Positions 17,201-62,551 of a DNA stretch of 64,000 nt are shown here, piece by piece. The position numbers and the translations under genes are program-made. The DNA comes from a virus (lineage: Duplodnaviria > Caudoviricetes): IMG/VR virus record IMGVR_UViG_3300005445_000001, positions 21,651 through 85,650 of that record. One strand, written 5' to 3'. Position 1 is the first letter of the stretch. Each line of letters begins with the position of its first letter. The notes beneath the pieces were generated by a model. That model was not told the origin of the DNA. It was given only the letters and a program-made list of their open reading frames with translations, and did no database searches.

Positions 17201-17342
17201 GATTCTCAGGGAACTCAGAGAACACAGGCTTGGTAGGAACCCCGCACGTAGAGAACGGACATTCGTCGCACTTGGCTCCATCAGCCGTGCCACGTAGAAC
17301 CGGAAGCGCAATGCGCTCCGGTGCCGTTTGTGCTGTAGCCAT
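14253..17342 (-). CDS. polA: family A DNA polymerase with N-terminal family-4 uracil-DNA glycosylase and 3'-5' exonuclease
   Basis: UDG: CDECP, IGEGPG, PFVGQSG, HPAALLR; exonuclease: IDLET, HNGLYD, YNALD; polymerase motif [28 protein letters not shown]. Confidence 0.95.
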
Positions 17343-31402: not shown

Positions 31403-31792
31403 TCATGCGTCTCCATCGGAGGAGAGATCTTGATCAGGATCGATGTCTTCGGGGGAAGGATCGTGGTTCGAACGTGACGCATGTCTATTTTCTGCACCGG
31501 AGCGGACTGCAGATCGGACTGCAGAGCGGACCGAGCTAGGTTCGATGCGCGGCTCGTTGGGAAGGACACCTCCCAAACGGTGAGCGCGTTGAAGAAAGTA
31601 CGTTTCGCTGATTCCTAGTGCCCCACAGGCTTGGGCCATATCGCCGTCACAGACTTCAAGAGCTTCGCGGTAGATCCTTCGCTCGGCATCTCGCATCTGT
31701 ATGTAATAAGGAGTGTTCCAGTCACGCGGCGGAGAATTTCGTTTTCTACGCTGAGAGAGATAATAGTCCTTATCCTTAGTTGGCTCTTTCAT
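31403..31792 (-). CDS. stand-alone Fis-type (HTH_8) DNA-binding protein
   Basis: ERRIYREALEVCDGDMAQACGALGISETYFLQRAHRLG. Confidence 0.7.
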   Translation of the reverse strand: MKEPTKDKDYYLSQRRKRNSPPRDWNTPYYIQMRDAERRIYREALEVCDGDMAQACGALGISETYFLQRAHRLGGVLPNEPRIEPSSVRSAVRSAVRSGAENRHASRSNHDPSPEDIDPDQDLSSDGDA

Positions 31793-32199
31793 TACTGATC
31801 CGAGCCCTCAAGGGAGTACATTGCGCATCCCGGATCATGGTGCCGTCCACGCTCAATGTGATCGTCGGCTGGGCATGCACAGACCGCGATCGCTGAGCCA
31901 GCTCGGTCAAAGCCGGCTTGCATGAGCCCAGCTCCTAGGGGGGTCCAGAAAATCATCGAGAGCCCAACTACGATGGGTGTAAGCCCGCCCGTCGACGGCA
32001 TTCCAAAGAACGAGACGTCGTAGGCTCGGCCGATAGTCAGCGCAAGGAGCAAGCCCCACCATGCGCCCACACATGCCGGGCAATCCATGAACTCATTCAA
32101 ATTTGAATTATATCTACTCCAAATGAATCGTGAAATCCTGGCGCGACTTCCGAGGTACCAAAGTGCTGGAGTCAAGAGCATGTAAATGGAGATATCCAT
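31792..32199 (-). CDS. DUF1360-like membrane protein
   Basis: CPACVGAWWG between TM segments. Confidence 0.55.
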   Translation of the reverse strand: MDISIYMLLTPALWYLGSRARISRFIWSRYNSNLNEFMDCPACVGAWWGLLLALTIGRAYDVSFFGMPSTGGLTPIVVGLSMIFWTPLGAGLMQAGFDRAGSAIAVCACPADDHIERGRHHDPGCAMYSLEGSDQ

Positions 32200-32200
32200 C

Positions 32201-32653
32201 TCAGTTTCCCTTCTTGTCCTCATCTCCTAGCCGCTCAGCTATTTCCTCAGGGAGTAGATCAGGGGCTTCACCACCGCGCGCGACGCTAGCGCCTGGCGCA
32301 CCCGTCCAACTAGGACAGAGATAAGTTGAGGCAATGAAGTCTCCTCCACCCTTACCAGCTTTGCAGACGCCCCAGATTCCACGCTCGAGTCCTCCATCAA
32401 AATCGGGAACCATTCTACGAATGTTCATCACTCTAGGGTCATTTTCTCCGTGGGGGGATGTCAAAGAGATTTGCACTCCTTTGGCTAGGAGGGAGGCACG
32501 CGCCTTTTGCCACCAGAGGTCTTTGGCCTTGTCCACATCGAAATGTCTGCAATTCCAACATCCTTGAGATCGTTCAAACACTCGATCTGGGAACATTCCT
32601 AATTTGGCTGCTTGATCGACGTTTCCGAGGCGCTTTCCGAGCTTTTTACTCAT
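32201..32653 (-). CDS. four-Cys metal-binding protein
   Basis: CWNCRHF...GVC...YLCPSW. Confidence 0.55.
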   Translation of the reverse strand: MSKKLGKRLGNVDQAAKLGMFPDRVFERSQGCWNCRHFDVDKAKDLWWQKARASLLAKGVQISLTSPHGENDPRVMNIRRMVPDFDGGLERGIWGVCKAGKGGGDFIASTYLCPSWTGAPGASVARGGEAPDLLPEEIAERLGDEDKKGN

Positions 32654-32729
32654 CTCGAGGCGATACTAGTGACTCTCTGTCCTCAGAGCAAATTTGCGCT
32701 CTACTAGCACTAGAGATAAGGATTAACAC

Positions 32730-34829
32730 GTGACCAAAGCCCCGACGAACACCCAAGCAATGCCGTTCGATCCGGCCAAATTCGATACACTCAACGAGCC
32801 ACTCATCGTACGCGTTGAGAAACTCCGTGGAAACACGCGGTCACCTGTTCCTCTCCCTTCAACGGAAGAGGGCGGAGTAGGTGGAGTTGGATGGTCGAAG
32901 GATGACGTTCGAGGCCTCGAACAGTGGCTCGTAACGGCGTGGGCGGGTGGCGGGCTCTACGAGATCGTGGTTACTGACTCGTCACAGCCGCAGTCGGTTA
33001 CGATGCGCTGGCGCTCGTTCTACAGCCCGTCCGAGTATCCAGAGAAGACCCCTCCGCCGCTTGCTGGCGCTGCGACTCAGCTCCCACAACCCCAACCTCA
33101 GGTGCGACAACCTATGAGCTCAGCCTTCCCCAACGGCCTCCCCGTATTTCCCGGTGTGGGTCAGTTCCCGGCTCCGCAGCCGAATTATCAGCAACCTTCT
33201 TACTACTATCCGACGCCACCCCCTACGGGCTACGGGTACGGGATGCAGTCCAACCAACCAGGGTTCGACCCATCGCGCACGGCGATGGAACAAACGATCC
33301 GAGACATGCAAGCGCAGATGGCCCGCGAGCGCGAGACTGCGCTCCAACAGAAGTACGACGCTGCGATCGCGGCGCAGCGCGAGAGCACACGCGCCGAGAC
33401 TGCGCGGCTCGAGTCTCGATTCAGCGAGCTCGCTGCAATCGTCACGCAGCTAGCTCAGGGGATCAAAGACGGCCCAGCGAACCGCATCGACCCTCAGATC
33501 GAAGCGCTCAAGGAGAACAATCGTCAGCTCGCTGCGAACGCAGAAGCCGAACGGCGCGAGCGTGAGGCAGAGCGTCGTGAGCGTGAGATGAAAGATCTGA
33601 TCACGCAGATGGCGGCAAACTCACAGCGTCAGATCGAGATGATGCAACAGCAGTTCACGCAGATGCAACAGCAGATGGTGACGCAGGGTCGTCAACACGA
33701 TCCACTGATCGCGATGTTCCAAGAGCAACAGCGAATGCAGATCGAAGTCGCCAAGGAGCAAGCACGAGCTCAACAGGCGAGCGTAGAGAAATTGATCCCG
33801 TTCATGATGAACCCACGCGAGGCAGTGGCGCTCGCACGTGAGAGCTCGAACGGCATCGACGTGATCACGAACCAGGTCTCGCGCGCGTTCGGCGGCGTGA
33901 TCGAGCTCCAAGGAAAGGTGATGGAGAACCTCTCACAGATGCAGGGTGGAGATACGCCGGTGACGTTGATCAAGGATGGCATCGAGCGCGCGACCGATAT
34001 GGCTCAGCGTTGGATGGCGGGCAAGACGAAAGAAGCGATTGCGACGCAGCAAGCGCAAGCACAGGTCGCCCATGCTCAGGCGCAAGCGGTTGCTGCTCAG
34101 GCGATGTACGCAGCACAGGCTGCTCAAGCAGAGCAACAGCCGCAACCTCCGCCGCGTGTCGTGCACGCGCCTCCAGCGCCACCGGTTCAACAGCAACTGT
34201 CTGGTCCGAACGTGTCTTCGCCGGCACAGAAGAGTGGCGCGACGCAATTCGAGTTTGCTCCTAACTCACAGGGCTCAGGCGGCTCCAACGGAACCGCTCA
34301 ACCGATCCCACAACAAGCTGCACCTGTAGCTTCCACGCCCGTTCCTGTTCCAGCTGGGCCACCGAAACGGCACGGTCGCACCGACGAGGAATGGTTCGGT
34401 CCACTCATGCCCGAGGTCTTGAAGATGCGAACGGGCGTGGCGCGCGCGATCGAAAGTGCCACGATGAAGCCGCCCAGGCTCGACAAGGCGACACACAAGA
34501 TCGATGGCATCGAGCCGGATCAGGTTGCGAACTACATCTTGCAGGCCGCAATGATCGTGATGCAGCAACGCATGCCAATTCCGGTGATGGTCGAGCTCTT
34601 CATGCAACAACAGTTCGACATGATGATGGACGTGCTGTTGCCTGATGCACCATTCCCGTACAAGGCTGAGGTGATCCAGTCGCTCGTGGCACAGATGCAA
34701 GGCAAGGAACCAGATGAGCCAGACGAGCCCGAAGAAGATGACGACGACGAAGAAAGTGACGAGAACGACGGCGACGATCGCAAGCTCGAAGAGCGAACGA
34801 CGAAAGCGCGTCCGTCGGCCCAAGCGTGA
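32730..34829 (+). CDS. 699-aa Gln/Pro-rich coiled-coil protein
   Basis: P/Q/Y low-complexity segments, long heptad region, acidic tail. Confidence 0.8.
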   Translation: MTKAPTNTQAMPFDPAKFDTLNEPLIVRVEKLRGNTRSPVPLPSTEEGGVGGVGWSKDDVRGLEQWLVTAWAGGGLYEIVVTDSSQPQSVTMRWRSFYSPSEYPEKTPPPLAGAATQLPQPQPQVRQPMSSAFPNGLPVFPGVGQFPAPQPNYQQPSYYYPTPPPTGYGYGMQSNQPGFDPSRTAMEQTIRDMQAQMARERETALQQKYDAAIAAQRESTRAETARLESRFSELAAIVTQLAQGIKDGPANRIDPQIEALKENNRQLAANAEAERREREAERREREMKDLITQMAANSQRQIEMMQQQFTQMQQQMVTQGRQHDPLIAMFQEQQRMQIEVAKEQARAQQASVEKLIPFMMNPREAVALARESSNGIDVITNQVSRAFGGVIELQGKVMENLSQMQGGDTPVTLIKDGIERATDMAQRWMAGKTKEAIATQQAQAQVAHAQAQAVAAQAMYAAQAAQAEQQPQPPPRVVHAPPAPPVQQQLSGPNVSSPAQKSGATQFEFAPNSQGSGGSNGTAQPIPQQAAPVASTPVPVPAGPPKRHGRTDEEWFGPLMPEVLKMRTGVARAIESATMKPPRLDKATHKIDGIEPDQVANYILQAAMIVMQQRMPIPVMVELFMQQQFDMMMDVLLPDAPFPYKAEVIQSLVAQMQGKEPDEPDEPEEDDDDEESDENDGDDRKLEERTTKARPSAQA

Positions 34830-38404: not shown

Positions 38405-38710
38405 CTATCGACGATGCTTGTAGCCGGCGGCAAAAATGCTCACTAGAATTGCCGCCGTCGCAACGCCCCCGAGCATTAGACCCAACACTGTGTAGTCAAG
38501 TCCCGACTGCCCAAATCCAGTGCCACGCAACTTTGATGCGGTCGCGTACGGATCCCAAAATCGGCCGACCGATGGTGGACCGATCTCGGCGGGAAAAGAA
38601 ACTGGAGGGAACGGTGGTGTGATGTACCAACCCGGCTCGTCGGGTGGGCAAAACGGGAACGGCGCGCCGAGTTGCATCGTGTACGTTCCGGGCGAGACAC
38701 CGACGGTCAT
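38405..38710 (-). CDS. tail-anchored membrane protein
   Basis: LRGTGFG; TM; GYKHRR. Confidence 0.65.
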   Translation of the reverse strand: MTVGVSPGTYTMQLGAPFPFCPPDEPGWYITPPFPPVSFPAEIGPPSVGRFWDPYATASKLRGTGFGQSGLDYTVLGLMLGGVATAAILVSIFAAGYKHRR

Positions 38711-40866: not shown

Positions 40867-41580
40867 GTGTCCGAAGACCGATTTGCAAAGATCTCTGCGT
40901 TCATCGGGATCGGGTTGGTCCTCGTCGGTGGGGTCATGCTCTGGCAACAGCGACGAGCCACGACCAGTTTCAACGGTCTGGGACGCCCGCGCTATCGTCG
41001 AGTCGAAGGAATGGCCGAAGAGGCCCCCGTGATCGATGGGTTCTCGGATGGCAACATGCACACCGAGATCCGCGCGAGCGATGAAATGCCGATCGAGCAA
41101 CGGCTAGCGACCATCCAGCGCAAGATCTACGAAGGGACCAAAGACCCCGAGATGCGCAAGCTAGCGCTCGCGATCACCTCGCAGTGCCCCGAGCGCGATG
41201 GGCTCTGCGAGGCCAAGGCGATCTACAAAGCGGTCAAGAAACGGGTCCGCTACTCTGGTGACATCGCGCCGATCAAGCACCCCAATGGTCAGGTCGAAGG
41301 GATCGATCTCTACCAGAGCGCGCGCCGCACGTGGGAGTTCAAAGCTGGGGACTGTGACGACACGGCGATCCTGATCAGCACCCTGCTTGCGCACAACGGG
41401 ATCACTCCACGTTTGCGCGTGACCGCCGAGGATAAACATAGCGATGACGGTCACATCTACGTGATTGCGCTCCTGCCCAAGTTCAATCCGTCCTACTCTG
41501 TCGCGCTCGATGCGACCTTGCCCGGAAACAAGTTCAACGTGGAAGCGCCGGCGGCGCGCGTGACGGACTTCGACGCATGA
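40867..41580 (+). CDS. membrane-anchored transglutaminase-like Cys protease
   Basis: N-terminal TM then FNGLG; GDCDD (Cys), GHIY (His), ALDAT (Asp); TG-T-TAACCT 7 nt before GTG 40867. Confidence 0.8.
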   Translation: MSEDRFAKISAFIGIGLVLVGGVMLWQQRRATTSFNGLGRPRYRRVEGMAEEAPVIDGFSDGNMHTEIRASDEMPIEQRLATIQRKIYEGTKDPEMRKLALAITSQCPERDGLCEAKAIYKAVKKRVRYSGDIAPIKHPNGQVEGIDLYQSARRTWEFKAGDCDDTAILISTLLAHNGITPRLRVTAEDKHSDDGHIYVIALLPKFNPSYSVALDATLPGNKFNVEAPAARVTDFDA

Positions 41581-44649: not shown

Positions 44650-45183
44650 ATGATGTACTACCGCCACGGCGCAGATATGCACTACATGCGACCCGACGCA
44701 GTCATGCGGACGAGCGTTGTGCAACCGAGTGGCGGGTACTACCCGACTGCCGATGTGCTCGCGGTCGCCAACGAGTTCACCGTGGGAAACTACGCGTTCT
44801 CGCAAGGCAACGTCGCAGATGACGGCATGCCCACGAGTGGAATGAGCGGTCTCGGCTACACGTACTTCCGCGGCCTCGGTCAGGGCGGCGGGCCGAGCTT
44901 CAACCCGTTCAAGAAGCTGTGGCTCATGTTCAAGGCGAAGCGCGCCGCAGCCAAGGCGCAGATGTTCGTCGCCGCAGCGACGGCGCGCGGGATGCGCGGC
45001 CTCGGCGCTGCGTATCCGTACGGCCCCGCGATGGCGATGGGCCCAATGATCAATCCCGACGCGGCGGCGCGGTTCTCGATGCTGACCGCGATGGCAGAGC
45101 GAAACATGCCGATGTCGATCGCGGACTCGTACGGTCCGGCATCGCTGAATCGCTGGAACACCGTTCGTTTCCCGAACGGGTAA
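44650..45183 (+). CDS. virion protein with three GLG motifs (MMYYRH leader)
   Basis: MSGLG, FRGLG, MRGLG; TACTCT 7 nt upstream. Confidence 0.7.
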   Translation: MMYYRHGADMHYMRPDAVMRTSVVQPSGGYYPTADVLAVANEFTVGNYAFSQGNVADDGMPTSGMSGLGYTYFRGLGQGGGPSFNPFKKLWLMFKAKRAAAKAQMFVAAATARGMRGLGAAYPYGPAMAMGPMINPDAAARFSMLTAMAERNMPMSIADSYGPASLNRWNTVRFPNG

Positions 45184-45185
45184 AC

Positions 45186-45371
45186 ATGTCGAAGATCATG
45201 ACGCTATCAGGTGCTGCCGAGCTCGGACGAGAGTCCGGGCGGCAGTGCAAGTGCGTCTACAACCCGCGCACCAAGCGCCACGCCCGACTCTGTTTCGTCG
45301 GGAAGTCCAAACGCAATCGTTCAGGCTGGCAGTTCCAAAAGGGTGGGAGCCAGTTCTGTTCTCGTCGGTAA
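45186..45371 (+). CDS. small basic Cys-containing protein
   Basis: 61 aa, K/R-rich. Confidence 0.6.
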   Translation: MSKIMTLSGAAELGRESGRQCKCVYNPRTKRHARLCFVGKSKRNRSGWQFQKGGSQFCSRR

Positions 45372-45402
45372 CCACCCCAAGGAAACCCCACAGGAGAAAC
45401 CA

Positions 45403-46065
45403 ATGCGTCGTCGAATGCTCGGAAAAGTCGATCTTCTAGGCCTCAACGAGTTTGGCCAGAATCCAGGCCTCAACCCGATCTGGGGCACGCTGATCGGCGG
45501 CGGCGTCTCGGGTCTCACTTCGATCACGCTCGGTCACACGCAGACGGGCAAGCTCGCTGAGAATCGCGAGCTCATCGGTCTCATGGCCGGTCTCGGCACC
45601 GCAGGTGTGATGTACGCGATGAAGTCGACGCGCCATGCGGCGCTCGGCGCGGCCGTCGGTGCGCTCCTCGCGAGCGGTCTGGCGTGGATGGAAAAGGTCA
45701 TGCTGGGCACGGTCCAGTTGCCCGCGACGACCGCAGCGGTCGCTACGCAGGTGGCTGCTCAGGCTGCAGCGGGTGGCGCGCCGCCCCCGGGCACCGCTGG
45801 CGCGTTCGGCATCGCGAACATCCGTCAGCTGGGGATCTCGAATCTTCGTCAGCTCGGCCTCTCGACGGTGGCCAACGTTCCGCACGCGCGCGGCGTTGCC
45901 CCCGGCGCTGGCGTCGCTGGCGTCCAGCTCGGGAATGCTCGTCCGCCGATCAATCTGATGGGTCCGGGCTCGCCCGCGTCGCGTCAGGTCGCGCTCATGG
46001 GTGGCCCGCCGATCCACGGCATCGGTCACGCGTACGGCGCAACGGTCGTGGGTGGTGGTCGCTAA
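45403..46065 (+). CDS. multi-TM virion membrane protein
   Basis: AGGAGA RBS; three Gly-rich TM segments; IANIRQLG-ISNLRQLG repeat; directly before the capsid gene. Confidence 0.7.
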   Translation: MRRRMLGKVDLLGLNEFGQNPGLNPIWGTLIGGGVSGLTSITLGHTQTGKLAENRELIGLMAGLGTAGVMYAMKSTRHAALGAAVGALLASGLAWMEKVMLGTVQLPATTAAVATQVAAQAAAGGAPPPGTAGAFGIANIRQLGISNLRQLGLSTVANVPHARGVAPGAGVAGVQLGNARPPINLMGPGSPASRQVALMGGPPIHGIGHAYGATVVGGGR

Positions 46066-46082
46066 TCATTCACCGCTTTCGT

Positions 46083-46098
46083 CGGGGGACGTCCCCCG
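46083..46098. promoter_or_regulatory. perfect 16-nt palindrome upstream of the putative major capsid gene
   Basis: CGGGGGACGTCCCCCG. Confidence 0.5.
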
Positions 46099-46137
46099 CG
46101 AGAGCACAAACCTTCAACGAAACAAGGAGACAGAGTC

Positions 46138-46848
46138 ATGGCTGGATCAGTTGGCGTAGCACCAGGAACCTACACTTTCACGCTGCCGAACGGGCACGTC
46201 CTCGCGATCGAGGATTGGATCGACGACAAGCTGTACTCAACGGTGCAGCTGGCGAACGGTCAGTCGATCGCCGTCGAGGCGTTCACCGTCGGCCGTGGTC
46301 TGCAGATCTCGGGCGGCACCCGTACCACCACGCGCGTCGACACGAACGTGCCGCGCTCGGGTGAGAACGGTCTGCCGATGGCCTGGGAGATGTATATCTA
46401 CGGGATCGGGATCAAGGTTACGCGCGTCTGCCGTCCGCAGACGGGCGCGAGCCAACCGGTTCTCGCAGACGGCTCGGGCGCGCTGTCGGATCCTCCGCAG
46501 CTCGTCACGCTGTTCAACATCGATCGCGTGACCTTCATCAACTTCTTCTACAACACGCGTGACTACACCGTCGGCGTGATGCAGGACTACCCGCAGGGTC
46601 ACGGTTACAACGTGTTCTCGACCAACCCCGCGTTCGAGCTCGCGCAGAACGGCATCCCGTCACCGCGCGACCGCAACGCGCTTGTGCTGCCTGTCTGGCT
46701 GCGCGAGCAGCTCGGGTACAAGTGCGTGTTCACGCCGGAAGCCCCGCTCGTGATCTCGCAGCTCGCGAGTGATGGCTCGACCGCGCTCACCTTCGCCGAT
46801 GTGAAGGTCTACGCGTACGGCCTGATCAAGCGTTCGGCCGGCACCTGA
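46138..46848 (+). CDS. putative single-jelly-roll major capsid protein (large subunit)
   Basis: Strong AAGGAG RBS, terminator after; beta-strand pattern LYSTV...DTN...GLP...YIYGIG...PQGHG...NGIP...LPVWL...VKVYAYG; pattern recognition only. Confidence 0.6.
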   Translation: MAGSVGVAPGTYTFTLPNGHVLAIEDWIDDKLYSTVQLANGQSIAVEAFTVGRGLQISGGTRTTTRVDTNVPRSGENGLPMAWEMYIYGIGIKVTRVCRPQTGASQPVLADGSGALSDPPQLVTLFNIDRVTFINFFYNTRDYTVGVMQDYPQGHGYNVFSTNPAFELAQNGIPSPRDRNALVLPVWLREQLGYKCVFTPEAPLVISQLASDGSTALTFADVKVYAYGLIKRSAGT

Positions 46849-46894
46849 TCGGCTGCGGTCTGCGAGCCGCTCAACTCGCAGTGGTGGACCCGAA

Positions 46895-46930
46895 GCCCGT
46901 CGATCGAAAGGTCGGCGGGCGTTGTCGTTT
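46895..46930 (+). terminator. intrinsic terminator, probably bidirectional
   Basis: GCCCGTCGATC-GAAA-GGTCGGCGGGC then GTTGTCGTTT, between convergent genes. Confidence 0.65.
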
Positions 46931-47220
46931 CAGATGAGCCGACCCGGATCCTCGTAGCTCGAGACGCCAAGCTCGGCGAGTCTACGACGTGCGGGATCGA
47001 GCTTCACGTAGCGTGCGGTTGCCGTCGGGAACTCGTATTCGCGCTGGTAGCGCGTGATGCGTGCACGTCTACGTCTCGCGAGCTCGCAACCACGGCAATC
47101 CGATGGGCACCAAGGTCTCGGCGGATCCTCGACGATCGCCACAAGGTCATGGATGATCGCGTCGTCTCGGTCGATGCTCTCGAGGAGCATATCCAATGCG
47201 AAGACGAGAAACGCGATCAC
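46930..47220 (-). CDS. hypothetical protein
   Basis: 96 aa, CPSDCRGC. Confidence 0.45.
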   Translation of the reverse strand: MIAFLVFALDMLLESIDRDDAIIHDLVAIVEDPPRPWCPSDCRGCELARRRRARITRYQREYEFPTATARYVKLDPARRRLAELGVSSYEDPGRLI

Positions 47221-47591
47221 TAGTTGACCGCGGCGAGCGGTTGGATCTCGTCGTCAAGCTCTTCAGGTTCGAGGAGAACCCAAAATGCGATCGCGGCACC
47301 GATTGGGATGTCGATCGGGCGACAGGTCTTCAGGTTCGCGAGGAATCCGGTGATGTCGCCCCACATGATTTGTCGACGTGGATGCTCGATCAGCGCGATC
47401 TTCCACATCGCCAAAAAGTGATCGACAAGGTCAGAAACCTTGGCCGGAGAAGCCAAGATAGCTAGCGATTCGTCAGCCTTACGCTTTGCGAAGGTCTCTG
47501 CCCATCCAGAGTTTGTCACTGAGAGATAGGCTCTCGGTCCGGTAGTTGGTCTTTTGTAGATGACTTGCTTCCGAGCGTTCGTTAAGCGCAC
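47220..47591 (-). CDS. hypothetical protein
   Basis: TAGTCT 6 nt before GTG. Confidence 0.55.
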   Translation of the reverse strand: MRLTNARKQVIYKRPTTGPRAYLSVTNSGWAETFAKRKADESLAILASPAKVSDLVDHFLAMWKIALIEHPRRQIMWGDITGFLANLKTCRPIDIPIGAAIAFWVLLEPEELDDEIQPLAAVN

Positions 47592-47713
47592 TCATCGAGA
47601 CTACACCCGTGCGAGGAGACTCGACCTCAAGGGGCGCTTAAATGACAGATCTCGTAAGGGTTGGTAGTGTGGATTCGTCGCCAAGAATGTAACGGCGACA
47701 GGAGTCAGAAAAA

Positions 47714-48211
47714 ATGGGTCGTCTACCAGACCGATTCGCTCAGCGGATCATCACGTTTCGTCAACCTTGGAGCATGTACGGCGAGGTGACGCTCACGTCG
47801 GCGCAAGCCGGCAAGACGTTCCCGGAAGGAACGTTCCTCAACTCCACCGACAAGCCGTTCGAGATCCATCGCTTGATCCCACGGATCACGGCGCTCGACG
47901 GTAACGGCGTCGCGCTCGTCACGCAGCCTGACGAAGAGTTCATGTTGTCGATGGTGAAGTGTTCGATTCTCGATCTCGGCAAGACGACACCTCTCCAGCG
48001 CGCCCCGACGCGTCTGCGCTCGATGCTCAAGGGTAGCGCAGAGCAAACGTGGGAGTGGGCGGATCCCTACTATCTCGTCAAGAGCGAGCAGTTCCAGATA
48101 ACGAATGACGCCGACACGTTCCCCGCGATCACGAGCCTCGTCACGCTTCGCGTCGAGCTCAATTTCGAGGGCTTCCTACTCACGATCGCGCCGCCTAGCG
48201 AAGCGCGGTAA
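47714..48211 (+). CDS. putative single-jelly-roll capsid protein (small subunit)
   Basis: GGAG RBS; PFEIHRL...KCSILD...APT...W.DPY.L...RVELNFEG beta-sandwich pattern. Confidence 0.55.
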   Translation: MGRLPDRFAQRIITFRQPWSMYGEVTLTSAQAGKTFPEGTFLNSTDKPFEIHRLIPRITALDGNGVALVTQPDEEFMLSMVKCSILDLGKTTPLQRAPTRLRSMLKGSAEQTWEWADPYYLVKSEQFQITNDADTFPAITSLVTLRVELNFEGFLLTIAPPSEAR

Positions 48212-48220
48212 AGAGGGTCC

Positions 48221-48541
48221 ATGCAGCCCTCGGTAGTCAACACGATGAGTGTGCCATCGGCGGGTAGCGGCGAGCCGACGCTCGTTTTCGTTGCCGGGCA
48301 AATTCCGATGCGCGTGAACGTGTCCAACGTTGGTGCCGTGTCCGTCCAGCTCGCTCACGAGTCATCGACGCTGACCAACAGTCCTCCAACGCTTGGCAAG
48401 ACCTTCATCTTGCCGATCGGTCGTGAAGTGGTCTTCGTCCTAGCGCCGGGGCAAGCGATCGTCGCGGTCTCGCAAGGAGCCGGCGGGGAGATCTCGATCG
48501 CAGCGTCGGAAGCGATCCCGCAAACAGCCTTTGGAGCGTGA
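48221..48541 (+). CDS. small beta-sandwich virion protein (penton/minor capsid-like)
   Basis: RVNVSNVG...FILPIG...LAPGQAIVA. Confidence 0.5.
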   Translation: MQPSVVNTMSVPSAGSGEPTLVFVAGQIPMRVNVSNVGAVSVQLAHESSTLTNSPPTLGKTFILPIGREVVFVLAPGQAIVAVSQGAGGEISIAASEAIPQTAFGA

Positions 48542-48544
48542 TCG

Positions 48545-49558
48545 ATGCCCATCCTTTCAGAGTTCAACGATTTCACTCCTGTCGATGCACGACTCTTCAA
48601 CCAAGCGCTGTTCGAGCTCTACTTTTCGAACTGGGGTCAGCGCGTCGTCAATGCTGATCCGACGATCGCAGCTGCAAACCTTCAGTATCCGTTGCCCGGA
48701 CAGCAAGGATTGCAGGACTCGCTCGCGGCGATCGCGATCGGTCCGCGCTCGACGGTGGATCGTTTCTGGATCTCATACAACCGTCAAAAGACGTTCAACA
48801 CGACGCAGACGTTTTCGGGGACGCCCGATCGTGCTCGGCGTGTGAGCCTCAACGCGCCGATGGTGTTCGCACAAGCGACGCAGAGTGGTGTGGTGGCACC
48901 TGCAACCAATCTGGGCCCGAACGTGGCGTGCATTCAACCCGCTGGAGGAACGATCTACCTCTACCCGTATGCCAGGCAGAGTCCGAGCGTCAACAATCCA
49001 ATGGGCATCACGTTTCCGCTCGAGCAAGACAACACGTGCTTGCCGCAGAACTACGTGTCGGGCGTCGATGGTACGACGATGCTCGGCTTCGGAACGAATG
49101 CACCAGGCGTTGGTGCTGTGAGCCCAGCAAGCCCGTTCGTTCAACCGTTGCTCCACGCGTATCTCTATCTGAAGCCGCCTGTGTTGCCGTTGCCGGTTTC
49201 GCGGTTTCCGTTGAACTACTTCGTGAACTGGACGGGTGGGCAAGCAGTGCCGGCGGCACGCACGCTGATCGCACAAATCCCGGTGTTTGGTCGCGCGCAC
49301 ATTCGGCTGTGGGGTACTTGCCCAACCTCGACTTGCGTTTTCGATGTTGGGTTCATCCGTGGCCTTAGCGAAACCGACGCACAGAATCTCGAGTCGCTCG
49401 AAGTGATCGGCGCTGCGGAGCGCAAGCTGATCGCGATCGATGGCCCGTGTGCCGATTACATGAACGTCTACGCGACGCCCGATGCACCGTCGACGGTGCT
49501 CATGCAGATCGCCTGTTACGACTCGCTCGCGGGCTATGGAAACCAGATCAAGCCCTAA
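48545..49558 (+). CDS. virion structural protein (vertex-like)
   Basis: 337 aa, beta-rich, in the capsid operon. Confidence 0.55.
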   Translation: MPILSEFNDFTPVDARLFNQALFELYFSNWGQRVVNADPTIAAANLQYPLPGQQGLQDSLAAIAIGPRSTVDRFWISYNRQKTFNTTQTFSGTPDRARRVSLNAPMVFAQATQSGVVAPATNLGPNVACIQPAGGTIYLYPYARQSPSVNNPMGITFPLEQDNTCLPQNYVSGVDGTTMLGFGTNAPGVGAVSPASPFVQPLLHAYLYLKPPVLPLPVSRFPLNYFVNWTGGQAVPAARTLIAQIPVFGRAHIRLWGTCPTSTCVFDVGFIRGLSETDAQNLESLEVIGAAERKLIAIDGPCADYMNVYATPDAPSTVLMQIACYDSLAGYGNQIKP

Positions 49559-49575
49559 TGTGAAAGGCTTTTTCA

Positions 49576-49992
49576 ATGGCGTATGGCGGAATCCCCGTTT
49601 ACATCGATCGAGGCCCGGGATTTCACTTTAGGAATTTCCTCCGCATCGATGATTTGACCCTCGACAGCTTCACAGGAAATGCGGCTAACATCGCGGCGGC
49701 CGATACTGGTCAACTCACGACGGCGATTCCTGGACCGAACCAGACGGGGATCCCGATTTGGTTTGGTCGTGGAAGAGGCAACTGGCGACCGGCCGACGCG
49801 AACATGATCATCGACAGTTTCCAGGTGCTGCTCACTGGTGCACCACCGACGGGATTCGTTGTGCCAGCCACAGTGTTGCCGACGCCAGTCGTCGTCAATG
49901 GTGACCTGATCTTGACGCATCAAAATGTTGTCAATGGTGGTGTCCAGCTTCTTCGTGTGATCTTGCAGTACGTCAACACGATGGTTAGCTAG
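49576..49992 (+). CDS. virion structural protein
   Basis: 138 aa, in the capsid operon. Confidence 0.55.
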   Translation: MAYGGIPVYIDRGPGFHFRNFLRIDDLTLDSFTGNAANIAAADTGQLTTAIPGPNQTGIPIWFGRGRGNWRPADANMIIDSFQVLLTGAPPTGFVVPATVLPTPVVVNGDLILTHQNVVNGGVQLLRVILQYVNTMVS

Positions 49993-50040
49993 AGACGGTT
50001 GGTTTGCGCATCTAAGTAGATTCGCGATACAATTCAGAAC

Positions 50041-50934
50041 ATGGCCGACGAAGATCGCATCCGAACGATCACCGCGAATCTGGAGACGACCTACCAGAAC
50101 ATGCGTTTGGCTGCAGCCAACGTGTCTGGTTTGCTGTCGGTCGGCCGTGCGACGTGTGACGAGGTCAAGGCCTACAATCTATGGGCGCTCGCGACGTACA
50201 ACGCGCAGCGCGGCATGTTGAGCACGCTACGCGCCGCCGGTGATCAAGGCGTGCCCGAGCTCCCCGAGGCGCCAACGCTGTTCTCCTGGCAAGGGATGGA
50301 CGGCTCACAGGCTCTCGACTTTGATTGCTCTGGCGACATCTCGAGCGAGAACGTCGACAGCTTGCAAGGCGCGATGAAAAAGGCTCTGCGTGGTCCGTCG
50401 AGCAAGGCGGTCTATCTGAGTCTAGAACAGGTGAACATCGTCACCACCGATCAGCACATGTACGATCCCGAGAACTCGCCGAGCTTCAAGACGCTGAGCG
50501 ACGTCGCAGCCAAGCAGCAAGCCGGCCTCGGAATCGCGCCGGTGCTCTTGATCATCGTGATTGCCGGCATCGCGATCGGCGTCGCGCTCGGCATCAAGGC
50601 GCTCATGGCCTACCTCACGGAGAACTCGATCCAAGAGGAGACGACCGAGCGCACGCGCGTGCAGTCCGACGCGTTCCAGCGCTACACCGCGGCGAGGTTG
50701 AGTTGCTACTCGAGTTGCACGGCGCAAGGCAAGAGCACCGAGGAATGCGTGTCGACGTGCGCAAAGCTCGTCGAGAAACCCGACATCAAGATCGATTCCG
50801 CACGTGGGATCGCGGAGTGGGGCGCGTTGCAGTGGGTCGGCCTCGTCGCGGTCGTCTCGTTCGGTTCGCTCATCGCCTACAAGCTCTACCGGCGTAGGCA
50901 TGAAGGTCAGTACTTTCCGACGATCCTCCCCTAG
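50041..50934 (+). CDS. two-hydrophobic-segment membrane protein (AGLG followed by hydrophobic peptide)
   Basis: QAGLG-IAPVLLIIVIAGIAIGVALG; CYSSC...CVSTC; C-terminal TM + YRRR. Confidence 0.7.
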   Translation: MADEDRIRTITANLETTYQNMRLAAANVSGLLSVGRATCDEVKAYNLWALATYNAQRGMLSTLRAAGDQGVPELPEAPTLFSWQGMDGSQALDFDCSGDISSENVDSLQGAMKKALRGPSSKAVYLSLEQVNIVTTDQHMYDPENSPSFKTLSDVAAKQQAGLGIAPVLLIIVIAGIAIGVALGIKALMAYLTENSIQEETTERTRVQSDAFQRYTAARLSCYSSCTAQGKSTEECVSTCAKLVEKPDIKIDSARGIAEWGALQWVGLVAVVSFGSLIAYKLYRRRHEGQYFPTILP

Positions 50935-50952: not shown

Positions 50953-51315
50953 GTGAGCGACGTTTCTCAAGCGAAGGTGTTGATCGTCGTGTTCGCGATG
51001 CCTCAGTGCCCGGCGTGTCACGAGTATCTGCCTCGATTTTGGAAACAGGTGGAGGGCTTCCAACGTCTCGGCTACCCGTTCGTGCCGTACGCGCCGAGCA
51101 CGAACATCAACCGCGGCGACATCCCGATCCTCGTCTACGACGTCACGTCGAAGGATCCGAGCGTTCAGCAATTTGCTGATCGATTCGAGGTGAGCAGCGT
51201 TCCAGCGACGGTGTTCCTGCCTAAGATGGGCGGCTTCCACAAGCTCGTGGGCGCACAGGACGACGAAACGATCTATCGCCTCTTGCTCGCGGCTACCACG
51301 GTCAACAGCAACTGA
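50953..51315 (+). CDS. thioredoxin-like protein
   Basis: VFAMPQCPAC; FEVSSVPATVF cis-Pro loop. Confidence 0.8.
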   Translation: MSDVSQAKVLIVVFAMPQCPACHEYLPRFWKQVEGFQRLGYPFVPYAPSTNINRGDIPILVYDVTSKDPSVQQFADRFEVSSVPATVFLPKMGGFHKLVGAQDDETIYRLLLAATTVNSN

Positions 51316-52972: not shown

Positions 52973-53818
52973 TCAGACAGCCGACTTCGACCACAATCGA
53001 TACCCCTTCGAGGCTAGATAGGCGCCACCAAGGAGCCCAAGCGCGCCGAGTACGTAGAGCAGCCTCGAGCTCGCTGGCTTGGGGCAGATCGGCAATCCGC
53101 TCCAATCGGGGCGTGATCGGTCAGCGACGGCCGCAAGACCAGCTGCGAGCAAGGCCGCACCTTCTTCGGTGTCAGGTCCGAATCCCCAATGCCGCCAAAG
53201 AAATGTGTGCCAGTGATCGACACCCGGTAACGGCCCCACCCAATAGTTACCGCGCGCGGCTTCGATCCGAACCTTCGCGGCGGGATCGGGGAACGCCTGT
53301 TGATACTCGAGTCCATCCTGATCGTCAGCGCCGTTCGAGAAATCGCCGCTGTCACCGTCGGCAACGAGCTTCGCGATGAGCAACGTTTGCAGCGTCGGAT
53401 CTGCTGACGTCGCAGCCCAGCGACCGTACGGTGCCGAGAATCCCGAGCCGTGGATCGGTCCGTAGTGGCCGTAGTTGGGGTGTCCGGGCCCTTGGCGATA
53501 GAGGAGCAGATCGTTGACGCTGCCAAGTCCCTCGAGATTGGCGCGGTTCACCGCGGCTTCACCGACGGCGACTCGCTCGGTGATCGATCGCGAGCCGACT
53601 TCGGATTGCATGTAGCGCGCGAGCGTGTAGCCCTCGAGCGAGAGGTCGCCCCCGTAGCCGAGCGTCGCCATCTGTGCCTCGGCGGCGGCTCTCATCGCCT
53701 CTGGATCACACGCGACGTTTCCGTTCCCGTCGATCCCACAACCCGAGCTGATTACTGTGTCTGGTACGTCAGAGAAATCGCCGACGAACCACGGCATGCA
53801 GTCGGTCGATGTCGTCAC
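52973..53818 (-). CDS. membrane-anchored SleB/CwlJ-like cell-wall hydrolase
   Basis: LARYMQSEVG...VAVGEAAVNR; C-terminal TM. Confidence 0.65.
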   Translation of the reverse strand: MTTSTDCMPWFVGDFSDVPDTVISSGCGIDGNGNVACDPEAMRAAAEAQMATLGYGGDLSLEGYTLARYMQSEVGSRSITERVAVGEAAVNRANLEGLGSVNDLLLYRQGPGHPNYGHYGPIHGSGFSAPYGRWAATSADPTLQTLLIAKLVADGDSGDFSNGADDQDGLEYQQAFPDPAAKVRIEAARGNYWVGPLPGVDHWHTFLWRHWGFGPDTEEGAALLAAGLAAVADRSRPDWSGLPICPKPASSRLLYVLGALGLLGGAYLASKGYRLWSKSAV

Positions 53819-55078: not shown

Positions 55079-57196
55079 ATGAGCAAGGTCTTAACGGCTG
55101 ATCAAATCAGACTTCACGCCGTGGATCTTCTGCAACAAGCAGCGGATCCTAGTGCAGGCGGTGGTGTCGCTGCGGCGATCGGCTCGTTCTACTTGCGTTC
55201 GGGAACCGGTCAGGCATGGCTAAAGACTGGTGCGGGAAACACGGCATGGACCAAGCTCGTTCAGAGTTATGGTTGGCTCTCGGTAAAGGATTATGGCGCT
55301 GTTGGTGATGGCGTCACCGACGACACTGCGTCGATCCAAGCCGCAATCAACGACGCCGCAACCGCGGGCGGCAACGTTGTCTTCTTCCCGCCCGGAACGT
55401 ATGCGGTAACGCAACTCACGCTCAACAACCAAAGCAACGTGCAGTTGCGCGGTGCGGGCGCAGGCTCCGTCATCAAATGGGTGTGGAACGCGGCGACTGC
55501 AGCCGGCTCGATGATCACGCTCTCGGGTGGCACGCAGCGGGTGAAGATCGAGAGCCTACGTCTCGATGGCTCTGGGCTGACGAATCCCGATGCCGGACGT
55601 GGCAATCACCTCATCGCCATTGGTACCGGCGCTGGTGCGGTCGTGGAGACGCAAATCAACAACTGCCAGCTGGGCAACATGATCGCGAGCTCCGGCGACG
55701 GCGTTCACATCTTGGGAACCGCTGGCAACATCGTATCGCGTGTGTGGGTGTCCGACTGCGTGCTCACCTCGTGCTCGCGGTTCGGCGTCGGTGTTGAACA
55801 AGGCGCTGAGTATCTTTGGGTCCAGAGCAACTACTTCACCGGCAACGAAACCGATGTCGCGATTGTTGCAACGGCGGATCTCAACACGGCGGCTGTTATC
55901 GTCTATGGAAACGAGATCCAGCACACCGGTACCGTGCACCATGCGATGCGCTTTGAAGGTGGAGCGACGACGTTCATCACCAAATTGATCGTCGCCGAGA
56001 ACGTGGTCATCGGTGGGTTCGCCACGCTCAACCGGGCGCAGTCGGCGATCATCACCGGCAACGTGCAGACGTCTGGCTCGTTCGCTTCGACGAATGCTGT
56101 GTGGCGAATCTTCGGTAACGTGACCGACTCGATCGTGACGAACAACTTCATCGATCGCGAGTCGGGCTCAAGTGCAGGCCCGTGTATCACGTGCGAAAAA
56201 TCGACGAACTCGCCCAAAAACATTCGGTTCGGTCAGAACGTGCTCTCGCAGGAGAAGCAGGGCGCTAACTTCATGAACATCATCGACTGCACGCGGATCT
56301 CCGTCGGGCAGTGCATCTTTCATGCAACGGACGCTGGCGGCTCGACGATGTTTGGCGTGGACGTCCAAGCGGTAACCGTCGCAGCGACCGACATTCTCAT
56401 CGGCCATGCCAACCAATTCAGTGCTGCGGCGGGGTCAATGGCTGCGTGCGTGCGACTGCTCGCGAACGGCGCCAACGTCACTGACATCTCCGTCGTTGGT
56501 AACCAAGGCGACGGCGCCGACTACGGAGGTCGATTCGAGATCGGGGGTGGGGGAGGCACGTTCAATGGTCAGCTGCTCTACGGTGGAAACAACTTCGACT
56601 CGAGTGTTGGCAGCGTCAACCAAGTGGGCGTCACGGTACGGCCTAGGATCGGCGCCAATGCAGCTGTGACTGCCTCGCAGCTCTTCACCGGTACTGGCTC
56701 CCCAGAAGCTACGGTTACGGCTACCATTGGCTCTTTGTACTTGCGCTCAGACGGTGGGCAGGCGACGAGTGTCTACTACAAGGAAACAGGCACGGGCAAT
56801 ACCGGATGGATTGGGATCGGTGGCGCGCCGATCATATTTGGTACCGGCGATGTGACCACAGTTGCTACTGCGGTGTTCCTTGCTCCGGGATGGATCGCTA
56901 CAGCCATCGCCACAGAGATTCAGTTTGCGATCACCCGTCCAGGCACGATCCGCAACTTCTACGTTCGAGTTGCCGTTGCAGGTACGACCTCAACAACAAA
57001 TACGTATACTGTTCGAAAGAACGGCGTGGATACCACGCTCACTGCGGGGCTCAACAACACCGCAACCGGCACAGCGTCTGACACGACGCATAGCTTTACG
57101 GTTGTCGCTGGCGATCTGATCTCGGTGGACTGCGTCAAGGGTGGGGCGGTTGCGTCGGGACAGACCCTCGTCACCGCTACGATGGAGCAAGCGTAG
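55079..57196 (+). CDS. receptor-binding spike with pectate-lyase-like beta-helix
   Basis: SVKDYGAVGDGVTDDTASIQAAI...FFPPGTY; parallel beta-helix repeats. Confidence 0.85.
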   Translation: MSKVLTADQIRLHAVDLLQQAADPSAGGGVAAAIGSFYLRSGTGQAWLKTGAGNTAWTKLVQSYGWLSVKDYGAVGDGVTDDTASIQAAINDAATAGGNVVFFPPGTYAVTQLTLNNQSNVQLRGAGAGSVIKWVWNAATAAGSMITLSGGTQRVKIESLRLDGSGLTNPDAGRGNHLIAIGTGAGAVVETQINNCQLGNMIASSGDGVHILGTAGNIVSRVWVSDCVLTSCSRFGVGVEQGAEYLWVQSNYFTGNETDVAIVATADLNTAAVIVYGNEIQHTGTVHHAMRFEGGATTFITKLIVAENVVIGGFATLNRAQSAIITGNVQTSGSFASTNAVWRIFGNVTDSIVTNNFIDRESGSSAGPCITCEKSTNSPKNIRFGQNVLSQEKQGANFMNIIDCTRISVGQCIFHATDAGGSTMFGVDVQAVTVAATDILIGHANQFSAAAGSMAACVRLLANGANVTDISVVGNQGDGADYGGRFEIGGGGGTFNGQLLYGGNNFDSSVGSVNQVGVTVRPRIGANAAVTASQLFTGTGSPEATVTATIGSLYLRSDGGQATSVYYKETGTGNTGWIGIGGAPIIFGTGDVTTVATAVFLAPGWIATAIATEIQFAITRPGTIRNFYVRVAVAGTTSTTNTYTVRKNGVDTTLTAGLNNTATGTASDTTHSFTVVAGDLISVDCVKGGAVASGQTLVTATMEQA

Positions 57197-59406
57197 TGTC
57201 CAAGTCACTTGCCGCAGATCGTCTCAAGCTAGCGCTCGCGACGTGGGCGCAAGAGACGACCAAGCCAAATATCGACTCTGCCGTCGGGTCGCTCTGGATG
57301 CGCAACGGCAGCTATCCGACGATCCCGACCGAGCTCTACCTCAAGACCGCCGCGACCGCGAACGGATGGATCAAGGAGAACCTTGTCAACATCAACGTCT
57401 TCAACGTGAAGGACTACGGTGCGCTCGGCGACGGCGTCACCAACGACACCGCAGCGATCCAAGCAGCCATCGACGCAGCCAACGCCGCAGGTGGTGGTCA
57501 AGTCTACTTCCCGGCGACGGCAAATTATTACTCCGTCGTGAAGACCGCTGGTGGTGGGCATGCTGATGTGTTGTCGGTGTCCAACGTCGCCAACGTGACC
57601 TTCATCGGAGATGGTTATGCCTCCAAGATCCGGCAGACCGGATCCGCTGAGGCATCGGAGACCCATCTATTTGGTGTTCACAATGGATCCAACAAACTCA
57701 AGTTCATCAACCTGTTCGTCGACGTCTCACTGATTACGAATCCCGATCCCACCTCGCAGAACCACGCGCTCAACATCTACGGCAAGGCGGGTGATCCTAA
57801 CGGAGGGCCTTCGAATGTCGAGATTCGCGGCTGCTACTTTGGGCGCTGCGTTGGCGATGCCGTACGATTCATTGGTGAGGTCGGCCAGGAAGTCCAGAAC
57901 GTTCGTGTACTCAATAACATCTTTGATGCTGAGGATGGTAACGGCGGATCGCGTACGTGCGTTTCTGCGCAGCGCAACAGCCGATACATACAATGCCACT
58001 TCAATTGGATCCGTGGTTCGCATGATCAGCAAATCGATTGGGAGCCGACCGCTGGACCCGGACCCATACAATGGTCAATCATCGGCAACCACATCGACAA
58101 CGAGAGTCATGTTGTTGACGCAGTGACACTGTCGGGTGCCGGTGACACGAACGCGTCGATGCGCAACATCTACGCGTACAACACCCTCAACAATGGTGGG
58201 GGCATCTTTGGCGTCGCCGTCGGCCCCCTCGTCTTCCACGGTAACTATCAGGAACTCTCGGTAGGCGGCACAGGGACGATCGTACTTGAGCAATTCGGTC
58301 AGTATGAGCAAGTGACGTCGAACATCGTGCGAAACACCGAGCTCGATGTACCACAGGCGACAATACTTGTTTCTACTGTTGGTGTGAGTATTACGACAGA
58401 TCTGCTCATTGCAGATAATTTGGTGTTCCAGACATCAACGAGGGCCGGTGGTGCAGCCACTATCGCTATTCAAGATGTAGACAATGCGGTTCTTACTGGA
58501 AACCACTGCAGTGTCAACGATACGCAGATCAACAGTGTAGGATTGACGTCGAGTACGGTGTCACGTGCGGTGAACAAAAACGTGTTCTCTGGCAACATGA
58601 TTTTCAACGATGGTGCTGCAGCATTTCTTGCTGCAGTCCGAGCCTCAACGAGCGCTGCACACAATCTGAAGAATCTTATCCAGAGTTTCAACCACGCAAA
58701 TCTGGGGGTAGGCAGCACGAACGGTATCCGATGGGATGTATCCGGTGGAGCGTTGTATACTGGGGGCCAGCAAGCGTGTTGCAACAACCTTGTTGGTGTA
58801 ACGGGCGCCGGTCAGGCATTGAATTTTGGGGGTGTTGGGGGGCCGGTAATCATAGAAGGGGAGACGGGACCAGGAACCCAGATTCAAGCGCAAAATTTCC
58901 CGACCGCGACAGAAGGAAATGCGACGGGACCCGTCGGATCGATCAACCTCAACAGCAACTCGTCTGCGGGCGCTGGAAAACTCTTCAATATCAAGGAAAG
59001 CGGATCGGGTAACACGGGATGGATCGGCGTCGGCGGTTTTGACTTCATCATGGGAGCAGCCGCCGGCTCGACGGCAACGGCCGCACGATTCTTCGCGCCC
59101 GGAGGGATGGCGCTTGCGGTTGAAACTGCGACTGAGATCCAGTGGGTCGTGCCCAGGCCTTGTACGATCAGAAATCTACGGCTCGTCTGCATTGCAGGTA
59201 CAGGTGGCGGCAATAACACATATCGGATTAGGAAAAACGGCGTAAATGCCAATCCGACGCTTACGATTGCTAATACAGCCACCAGTGGAACGAACACACT
59301 AACGACGACGGCGGTTGCAGGCGATCTCATCTCGATGCAGGTGACTAAGACGGTTGCCCCGGCGACGCCTCAGACTAACATCATCATCGCCACGGAGCTC
59401 GTATGA
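57196..59406 (+). CDS. second receptor-binding spike with pectate-lyase-like beta-helix
   Basis: NVKDYGALGDGVTNDTAAIQAAI...VYFP; C-terminal domain paralogous to 55079-57196. Confidence 0.85.
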   Translation: MSKSLAADRLKLALATWAQETTKPNIDSAVGSLWMRNGSYPTIPTELYLKTAATANGWIKENLVNINVFNVKDYGALGDGVTNDTAAIQAAIDAANAAGGGQVYFPATANYYSVVKTAGGGHADVLSVSNVANVTFIGDGYASKIRQTGSAEASETHLFGVHNGSNKLKFINLFVDVSLITNPDPTSQNHALNIYGKAGDPNGGPSNVEIRGCYFGRCVGDAVRFIGEVGQEVQNVRVLNNIFDAEDGNGGSRTCVSAQRNSRYIQCHFNWIRGSHDQQIDWEPTAGPGPIQWSIIGNHIDNESHVVDAVTLSGAGDTNASMRNIYAYNTLNNGGGIFGVAVGPLVFHGNYQELSVGGTGTIVLEQFGQYEQVTSNIVRNTELDVPQATILVSTVGVSITTDLLIADNLVFQTSTRAGGAATIAIQDVDNAVLTGNHCSVNDTQINSVGLTSSTVSRAVNKNVFSGNMIFNDGAAAFLAAVRASTSAAHNLKNLIQSFNHANLGVGSTNGIRWDVSGGALYTGGQQACCNNLVGVTGAGQALNFGGVGGPVIIEGETGPGTQIQAQNFPTATEGNATGPVGSINLNSNSSAGAGKLFNIKESGSGNTGWIGVGGFDFIMGAAAGSTATAARFFAPGGMALAVETATEIQWVVPRPCTIRNLRLVCIAGTGGGNNTYRIRKNGVNANPTLTIANTATSGTNTLTTTAVAGDLISMQVTKTVAPATPQTNIIIATELV

Positions 59407-61946: not shown

Positions 61947-62174
61947 ATGCTTCAATCCTTGAAGGATCTCCTCGGTAGTGAGCATGGCCTCTTGGCGATG
62001 CTCCTCATCATTGCTGCGACCGTCCTCGTCGGCGTCGGCAAGATGACGATCGACAACTGGCAGACGATGGCGGAATGGGTCTTCACCGCGTTTGGCGGAA
62101 CCCATGCTGTGGTGGCAGTCGCCGACGCGATGAGCTCGAAGAAGCCTGACGCGCCAGCGGAGACGGCCAAGTGA
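61947..62174 (+). CDS. putative holin (two hydrophobic helices)
   Basis: TM + amphipathic helix, charged tail, upstream of endolysin. Confidence 0.55.
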   Translation: MLQSLKDLLGSEHGLLAMLLIIAATVLVGVGKMTIDNWQTMAEWVFTAFGGTHAVVAVADAMSSKKPDAPAETAK

Positions 62175-62551
62175 GGACCCCAGTCACCGTACGACTGATC
62201 GCCGCTTTCGCCGCGCTCATGATCGTCGCTTCGTGCGGACCGAGCGCCCGTGAGAAGACACTTCGAGGAACGTTTGCAGCCATCGACGCGAGCCGCAAGG
62301 CGTTCACCACATGGGATCTCAAGCACCAAGAGGAGATCGTTGCGAAGGCTCCGAGCCTCATCGAAGGCCGAACGCAGATCGACGCGTATCGAGCCGAGCG
62401 CAAAGCTCTCCTAGATGCATTCATCGTCGCGTATCGGGCTATCGCGATTGCTGCTGTCGCACAAGACAACGGCTCGCTCATGGATGCGCTCGCTGCGGGC
62501 AAGGCACTTGCCGACGCGATCAAGAAGTTGACTGGCGGATCGCTTCCTTAG
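62171..62551 (+). CDS. helical lipoprotein (spanin-like)
   Basis: AALMIVAS-C lipobox. Confidence 0.55.
   Translation: MRTPVTVRLIAAFAALMIVASCGPSAREKTLRGTFAAIDASRKAFTTWDLKHQEEIVAKAPSLIEGRTQIDAYRAERKALLDAFIVAYRAIAIAAVAQDNGSLMDALAAGKALADAIKKLTGGSLP

Follow-up and report, generated by a model that had tools for sequence, protein, structure and literature searches.

What kind of particle is encoded by the gene block at positions 44650-50934 of a 64-kb stretch of virus DNA that holds spike and lysis genes, but in which no terminase, portal, HK97 capsid, tail tube, sheath or tape-measure gene could be seen? The stretch, here termed the window, comprises bases 21,651-85,650 of the 85,650-bp virus record IMGVR_UViG_3300005445_000001, and coordinates refer to the window unless stated otherwise. 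An earlier note proposed a large, tailless, membrane-containing virus of Halopanivirales-like descent, with single-jelly-roll capsid proteins and its own replisome. Quite probably the block is a capsid module, belonging to a bacterial double-stranded DNA (dsDNA) virus that has a complete circular genome of 85.6 kb, no tail, and a jelly-roll shell over a membrane. Predicted folds, conservation, undetectable hallmark genes, motif enrichment and completeness were computed; from these we infer the capsid role, the hexamer and penton assignments, the membrane, a motor-less assembly, proteolytic cleavage and the host.

The first 90 bases of the record are repeated at its end, and the record is classed as having direct terminal repeats and as 100% complete. 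With this 90-bp terminal overlap, the genome is a circle of about 85,560 bp. Since the record is complete and circular, the absence of a gene can be judged over the whole genome.

Three open reading frames (ORFs) that carried the earlier proposal, of 236, 165 and 106 amino acids (aa), are present as claimed, the first with apparent expression signals:

46138-46848, plus strand: candidate major capsid protein, 236 aa, predicted single jelly roll with N-terminal arm
46124-46129, plus strand: Shine-Dalgarno sequence AAGGAG of the 236-aa gene, 8 nt before the ATG
46895-46930, plus strand: terminator-like hairpin downstream of the 236-aa gene, 11 GC-rich pairs, GAAA loop, weak U tail
47714-48211, plus strand: second predicted single-jelly-roll protein, 165 aa, a penton, minor or second major capsid candidate
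48221-48541, plus strand: 106-aa beta-sandwich, vertex/penton candidate, following the 165-aa gene wherever both are found in close relatives

The 236-aa gene had been described as highly expressed-looking, with a strong ribosome-binding site and a terminator. The first two points stand, and among 15 genes tested this one shows the strongest preference for codons ending in C (0.90; PolA, 0.61). The terminator is less clear: the hairpin exists and the 92 nt downstream of the gene fold with z = -2.8, but terminator-like sites in the region are not enriched over shuffled sequences (3 vs. 6.2).

The structure comparison that the earlier note called for returned a single jelly roll for both the 236-aa and the 165-aa models, with capsid proteins of SPV1 and Halopanivirales ranking high. 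The four best structural matches of the 236-aa model are vertical single-jelly-roll capsid proteins of membrane-containing tailless viruses, and SPV1 and sphaerolipovirus capsid proteins lead further searches with it. Its nearest named ESM clusters, PM2 P2 and PRD1 P3 (0.76-0.77), are leads only. Foldseek against BFVD gave generic jelly rolls only, at E > 0.002, and profiles from the capsid alignments found nothing among PDB sequences, Pfam or PHROGs. Each of the two models aligns as one barrel, over its full length, to one half of double-jelly-roll proteins; as modelled, neither protein has the double jelly roll of Varidnaviria. The 236-aa model has the VP4-like single-jelly-roll major capsid fold of Portogloboviridae, and the single-jelly-roll capsid fold of Halopanivirales is likewise seen in the models.

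Conservation was compared between this genome and eight related ones. No other protein of the genome is as well conserved as the 236-aa protein (62-78%; PolA, 38-59%). Genes found in all eight relatives are those of a tyrosine recombinase, a transglutaminase-fold enzyme, both jelly-roll candidates and the ORFs beginning at 31792, 32201 and 32730. The complete relative G013 has another replication module, with a primase-helicase fusion and no PolA match, yet keeps these core genes (8/8). The 236-aa jelly roll is most likely the main shell protein, and probably forms hexamers like SPV1 VP4.

Could the virus nevertheless be a tailed phage? The head and tail genes said to be missing from 64 kb were not found across the whole complete genome either, where the HK97 capsid, portal and terminase whose presence elsewhere on the contig would have spoken against the proposal were sought. 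Six-frame Pfam searches gave no Terminase_6N in 16 genomes and no TerL_ATPase, Phage_capsid or Phage_portal in 13 genomes each, with positive controls. PHROGs scans covered 131 ORFs, omitting about 14 known as replication, HNH or HTH genes, and low-scoring families were inspected for 25 of 29 in one scan; among the matches listed for unassigned ORFs, PHROGs, Pfam and NCBIfam yielded only beta-helix spike or fibre, endolysin, pilin and replication or metabolism families. Judged by these searches, the HK97 capsid, portal and terminase that characterize Caudoviricetes appear to be lacking. A tailed phage would need all three to have diverged beyond recognition, with the jelly rolls acting as cement or decoration proteins. 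The 165-aa model does match the Pam1 and KHP40 cement proteins (Foldseek), the spikes match tail-spike PHROGs, and ESM clusters of the 236-aa family are mostly labelled Uroviricota, by automatic labels. Beta-helix spikes, however, pass freely among virus types. One would hardly expect both conservation and codon bias to peak in a cement-protein gene, the core genes include no conserved portal- or HK97-type protein, and the complete genomes hold no spare P-loop ATPase, so that the tailed-phage explanation is very improbable.

The question of a packaging motor was approached through the P-loop proteins. An FtsK/HerA (A32-like) ATPase, expected under the earlier proposal, was sought and not found: profiles for HerA (PF01935), FtsK (PF01580) and A32 (PF04665) gave nothing above cut-off in five complete genomes. 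Besides the SNF2 helicase, two Walker A proteins are encoded in the genome:

19426-20430, minus strand: AAA_24 (Sak4-like) ATPase of a recombination module, beside SSB and exonuclease genes
24478-26130, plus strand: SF3/AAA+-type P-loop protein from alignment, probable replicative helicase, missing from the complete relative G013
22797-24386, minus strand: SNF2 helicase (Pfam)

A sub-cut-off FtsK match was rejected as a motor, being the Walker A of the AAA_24 protein. A match to a PHROG 'partition protein ATPase' was likewise set aside; that profile, 116 positions long, falls on a small domain of DNA-binding type without a P-loop. The 24478-26130 product has no database match; its short Walker A-B spacing, sensor Asn and arginine-finger box are not FtsK-like by motif. 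In G013 the clear Walker A proteins are the primase-fused helicase and a MoxR-type ATPase. On motif and family evidence, every P-loop protein in the complete genomes is accounted for as replication, recombination or MoxR-type.

In sphaerolipoviruses the packaging ATPase is among the most conserved genes (PMC5332951), and as no FtsK-HerA ATPase was detected here, a defining feature of Halopanivirales is missing. The descent proposed in the earlier note is therefore upheld in part: the single-jelly-roll fold agrees, but neither the ATPase nor sequence homology to VP4/VP7 or VP16/VP17 was detected (both jelly-roll profiles against PDB sequences; tblastn against INPHARED). The Halopanivirales or Laserviricetes (Singelaviria: SH1, HHIV-2, HCIV-1, P23-77) have this ATPase and small genomes, whereas the present genome is several times larger and has its own replisome. 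A Halopanivirales-type build, in which the 236-aa and 165-aa proteins are co-major and form hetero-hexameric capsomers over a membrane, with a motor too divergent to detect, seems unlikely, although several observations agree with it. The two proteins agree in size with SH1 VP4/VP7 and P23-77 VP17/VP16, their genes both occur in 8/8 relatives, each model has capsid proteins of HCIV-1, HHIV-2, SH1 and P23-77 among its high-ranking matches, and the pair shows weak collinear profile similarity (E 0.004-0.015, probability under 8%). The 165-aa gene had been said to follow the 236-aa gene, and it does lie downstream, but not directly: the terminator-like hairpin and minus-strand ORFs 46930-47220 and 47220-47591 intervene. 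It is also less codon-biased and less conserved, lies 8 kb off in L014 and falls outside 10 kb in L008 and L015. The two jelly-roll genes differ in conservation, in codon bias and in where they lie, which would fit a build with one major and one minor jelly-roll protein better than two co-major proteins.

SPV1 (Portogloboviridae; PDB 6OJ0) is a non-lytic 20-kb virus of archaeal Sulfolobales without a polymerase (PMC8459092). The present virus shares with Portogloboviridae a circular dsDNA genome with no packaging ATPase detected. For the VP10-like jelly-roll pentamer the 165-aa and 106-aa proteins are candidates; for the VP1-like nucleoprotein role only small basic proteins were found. It differs in being bacterial and 85.6 kb in size (relatives to 196 kb), with a lysis cassette that includes an endolysin, a PolA replisome, a type IV pilin and a transglutaminase-fold enzyme, and no sequence homology to SPV1 was detected. 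The tailless membrane-containing phage SSIP-1 has two capsid protein types (PMC6356626). Likenesses to it are a circular genome, an integrase, a homologue (gp34) of the transglutaminase-fold enzyme and a similar gene order, in which a membrane protein is followed by capsid-sized genes (210 aa) and these by a small gene of vertex size. SSIP-1 differs in its structural ATPase gp40, in having no annotated DNA polymerase, in half the genome size and in being halophilic; its gp45 and gp46 align collinearly with the capsid profiles but not significantly (E 0.016-0.08 for the capsid comparison), and gp48 gave no significant match either. By the features tested, the virus falls outside Halopanivirales, Portogloboviridae and Caudoviricetes. 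In build it is likely to be a several-fold enlarged tailless membrane virus of the portoglobovirus or SSIP-1 type, known from its genes alone, and it probably represents a new high-rank taxon.

Proteins that might belong to the membrane, core and maturation of such a virion lie mostly outside the block:

38405-38710, minus strand: tail-anchored protein whose start nearly copies the N-terminal arm of the capsid protein (V-G-V-x-P-G-T), same in 6/8 relatives
40867-41580, plus strand: membrane-tethered transglutaminase-fold Cys-His-Asp enzyme, candidate maturation protease (PF01841, E 1.6e-6)
32730-34829, plus strand: 699-aa Pro/Gln-rich coiled-coil core protein, 8/8 relatives, no Pfam, PHROG or NCBIfam match
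31792-32223 and 32201-32653: divergent core genes beside the 699-aa gene, 8/8 relatives

The many membrane proteins that the earlier note mentioned exist genome-wide, but within 44650-50934 clear transmembrane segments occur only in a 297-aa ORF. By an automatic filter, which also picks up some false frames, each genome has 15-36 tail-anchored ORFs. Such proteins are indirect support for an internal membrane, which Halopanivirales combine with a T=28 lattice. Conserved among relatives, small Cys-containing proteins rich in basic residues (25-35% Lys + Arg) are candidates for DNA condensation. The trio at 31792-34829, without family match, comprises the 699-aa protein, a CxxC-containing membrane protein and a 150-aa protein with a Cys motif. 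Two enzyme-like domains with a C-terminal membrane anchor (52973-53818, minus strand; 1455-2147, plus strand), one SGNH/GDSL-like and the other without family match, are possible virion entry enzymes.

In the relatives, the Cys and His motifs of the transglutaminase-fold enzyme are conserved. Its sole match in 50,697 INPHARED phage records is SSIP-1 gp34, annotated as structural, and a profile built without SSIP-1 scores gp34 at E 2.9e-21. The motif [LMFI]-x-G-[LFY]-G, counted outside the anchors of tail-anchored ORFs in nine genomes, occurs 30 times vs. 4.2 expected (about sevenfold), compared with 9 vs. 10.6 expected in long ORFs; the test is not fully independent, as the genomes are related and the motif was proposed beforehand from the same genome. 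The adenovirus protease, adenain, cleaves at (M/I/L)-x-G-x|G, a consensus similar to the motif that is enriched here in basic proteins and membrane proteins. It belongs to the Ulp1-like proteases of clan CE, whereas the enzyme here has a transglutaminase fold and its cleavage activity is hypothetical.

The abundance of tail-anchored ORFs, the conserved tyrosine recombinase and the undetected motor might also suggest a non-icosahedral or externally enveloped particle, or a vesicle-released mobile element, with the jelly rolls as scaffold or coat; poxvirus scaffold proteins (9ikc) are among the structural matches. This is improbable given a lysis cassette and spikes, best matches to icosahedral capsid proteins, vertex-like genes after the jelly-roll genes and a virion enzyme common to icosahedral SSIP-1.

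The remaining genes of the block, read as a capsid module, are as follows:

44650-45183, plus strand: 177-aa basic protein with three [M/F]-x-G-L-G motifs
45186-45371, plus strand: 61-aa basic (25% Lys + Arg) Cys-containing protein, candidate DNA-condensing, 7/8 relatives, 42-73%
45403-46065, plus strand: 220-aa Gly/Ala-rich weakly hydrophobic protein, immediately 5' of the capsid gene, 7/8 relatives
47220-47591, minus strand: conserved 123-aa gene between the two jelly-roll genes, 10/15 loci
48545-49558, plus strand: 337-aa conserved putative vertex/turret protein, role suggested by position, 5/8 relatives, 25-31%
49576-49992, plus strand: 138-aa putative structural protein, no family match
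50041-50934, plus strand: 297-aa protein predicted to have two transmembrane segments, also carrying a G-L-G motif

The 220-aa gene sits 5' of the capsid gene also in the distant loci L075, L079, L081 and L082; its product is probably a membrane or sub-capsomer protein, and a strict transmembrane filter gave no segment. The 106-aa protein falls in virus-only unnamed clusters of the ESM Atlas; its nearest named clusters, DUF7243 (0.85) and the PRD1 P5 spike N-terminus (0.80), are leads only, and a structural match is Ena (TM 0.68). The 337-aa protein has no family match in PHROGs, Pfam and NCBIfam scans. A thioredoxin-like protein (50953-51315, plus strand; 7/8 relatives) lies within the virion module and may form disulfides in Cys-rich virion proteins. 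A pair of paralogous ORFs at L016:2764-3685, each about 150 aa long and either overlapping or in tandem, is found in 6/8 relatives and is probably structural.

Spike, lysis and replication functions are encoded elsewhere, and Pfam bears out the PolA, SNF2 helicase, ThyX and methyltransferase read in the earlier note, as well as the AAA_24 ATPase, integrase and endolysin:

55079-59406, plus strand: two beta-helix spike/depolymerase proteins, 705 and 736 aa (PF12708, PHROG tail-spike families)
61947-62551, plus strand: holin-like and spanin-like lipoprotein genes, from sequence features
14253-17342, minus strand: UDG-PolA fusion DNA polymerase
11793-12635, minus strand: ThyX
7603-8766, minus strand: Dam-like N6-adenine methyltransferase

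The endolysin, with a peptidoglycan-binding domain, lies on the far side of the genome origin, outside the window. Because of the holin- and spanin-like genes, a Gram-negative bacterial host is suggested. A type IV pilin at L017:865-1917 (plus strand; genome 11864-12916, before the window) stands in frame behind a 180-residue leader. Its closest solved structures are geopilins and PilA 8tj2, which we take to be Geobacter and Myxococcus proteins; this likeness points weakly to a host among the Myxococcota or Desulfobacterota. Six matches in metagenome-assembled genomes (MAGs) lie in unrelated phyla, and were rejected as inconsistent evidence of host.

How widespread is the lineage? The 236-aa protein has 423 homologues, the best 120 of them 65-86% identical, on contigs up to 179 kb; at 50% identity the family has 196 clusters. 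The gene is on 15 IMG/VR contigs of 39-196 kb, five classed as terminally repeated. This is a widespread uncultured lineage with genomes of 80-196 kb. Distant homologues, on contigs of 80-124 kb, often lie beside a transglutaminase gene or the upstream membrane gene, and an ATPase family was annotated at none of the loci inspected. Tandem capsid-gene paralogues in distant relatives (three at L079:10001-12205, two at L075:3787-5208) recall the duplications in Singelaviria and SSIP-1. A tblastn search of INPHARED detected no cultured-phage homologue of the 236-aa or 165-aa protein, and a literature search, with most subscription journals outside its coverage, found no description of the lineage. 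Among sequencing runs, a full-length DNA match occurs in one, a rhizosphere metagenome that may itself be the sample behind the record, and no RNA runs were listed. A family member lies inside a Gemmatimonadota MAG chromosome (G016, CP070815, 3,658,341-3,719,594), exactly between two 100-N gaps; with scaffold gaps on both sides the block does not count as evidence of integration, and it is probably a mis-scaffolded viral contig. The tyrosine recombinase (L017:3859-4845, plus strand) occurs in 8/8 relatives and no true provirus was found; the enzyme may resolve genome dimers rather than integrate.

Taken as a tailless virus, the element would probably work as follows. The 236-aa jelly roll would build the main shell, and the 165-aa and 106-aa proteins would supply pentons, minor or vertex parts, with beta-helix spikes binding the host. 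A membrane made with about 20 small tail-anchored proteins would lie beneath the shell, perhaps tied to it by the 38405-38710 product through its capsid-arm copy. As no motor is detectable, the most likely course is that small basic proteins condense the genome and that membrane and shell enclose it as they assemble, as in Portogloboviridae. The membrane-tethered protease may trim virion proteins at [L/M/F/I]-x-G-[L/F/Y]-G. Replication would rely on the virus's own PolA and helicases, and exit on endolysin, holin and spanin.

Large phage genomes are generally taken to be tailed, and the prokaryotic viruses known to have vertical jelly-roll shells all have small genomes (20 kb in SPV1, 44 kb in SSIP-1). 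A broader proposal, offered tentatively and perhaps somewhat less likely to hold than to fail, is that these abundant dsDNA viruses of bacteria, 80-200 kb in size, form a class-level lineage not described before. They would condense the genome with small basic proteins and enclose it, without a motor, in a membrane and single-jelly-roll shell, with adenovirus-like cleavage by a transglutaminase-fold protease, and would connect SPV1 and the orphan SSIP-1 with a large radiation of bacterial viruses. The genes of the lineage would provide markers for re-labelling misclassified metagenomic viruses. Portoglobovirus-like viruses have been proposed as ancestral to Singelaviria (PMC8812541), and the lineage would be a bacterial test of that ancestry. 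If the proposal is true, the architecture extends several-fold in genome size, with its own replisome and an undetectable motor, and motor-less encapsidation scales up.

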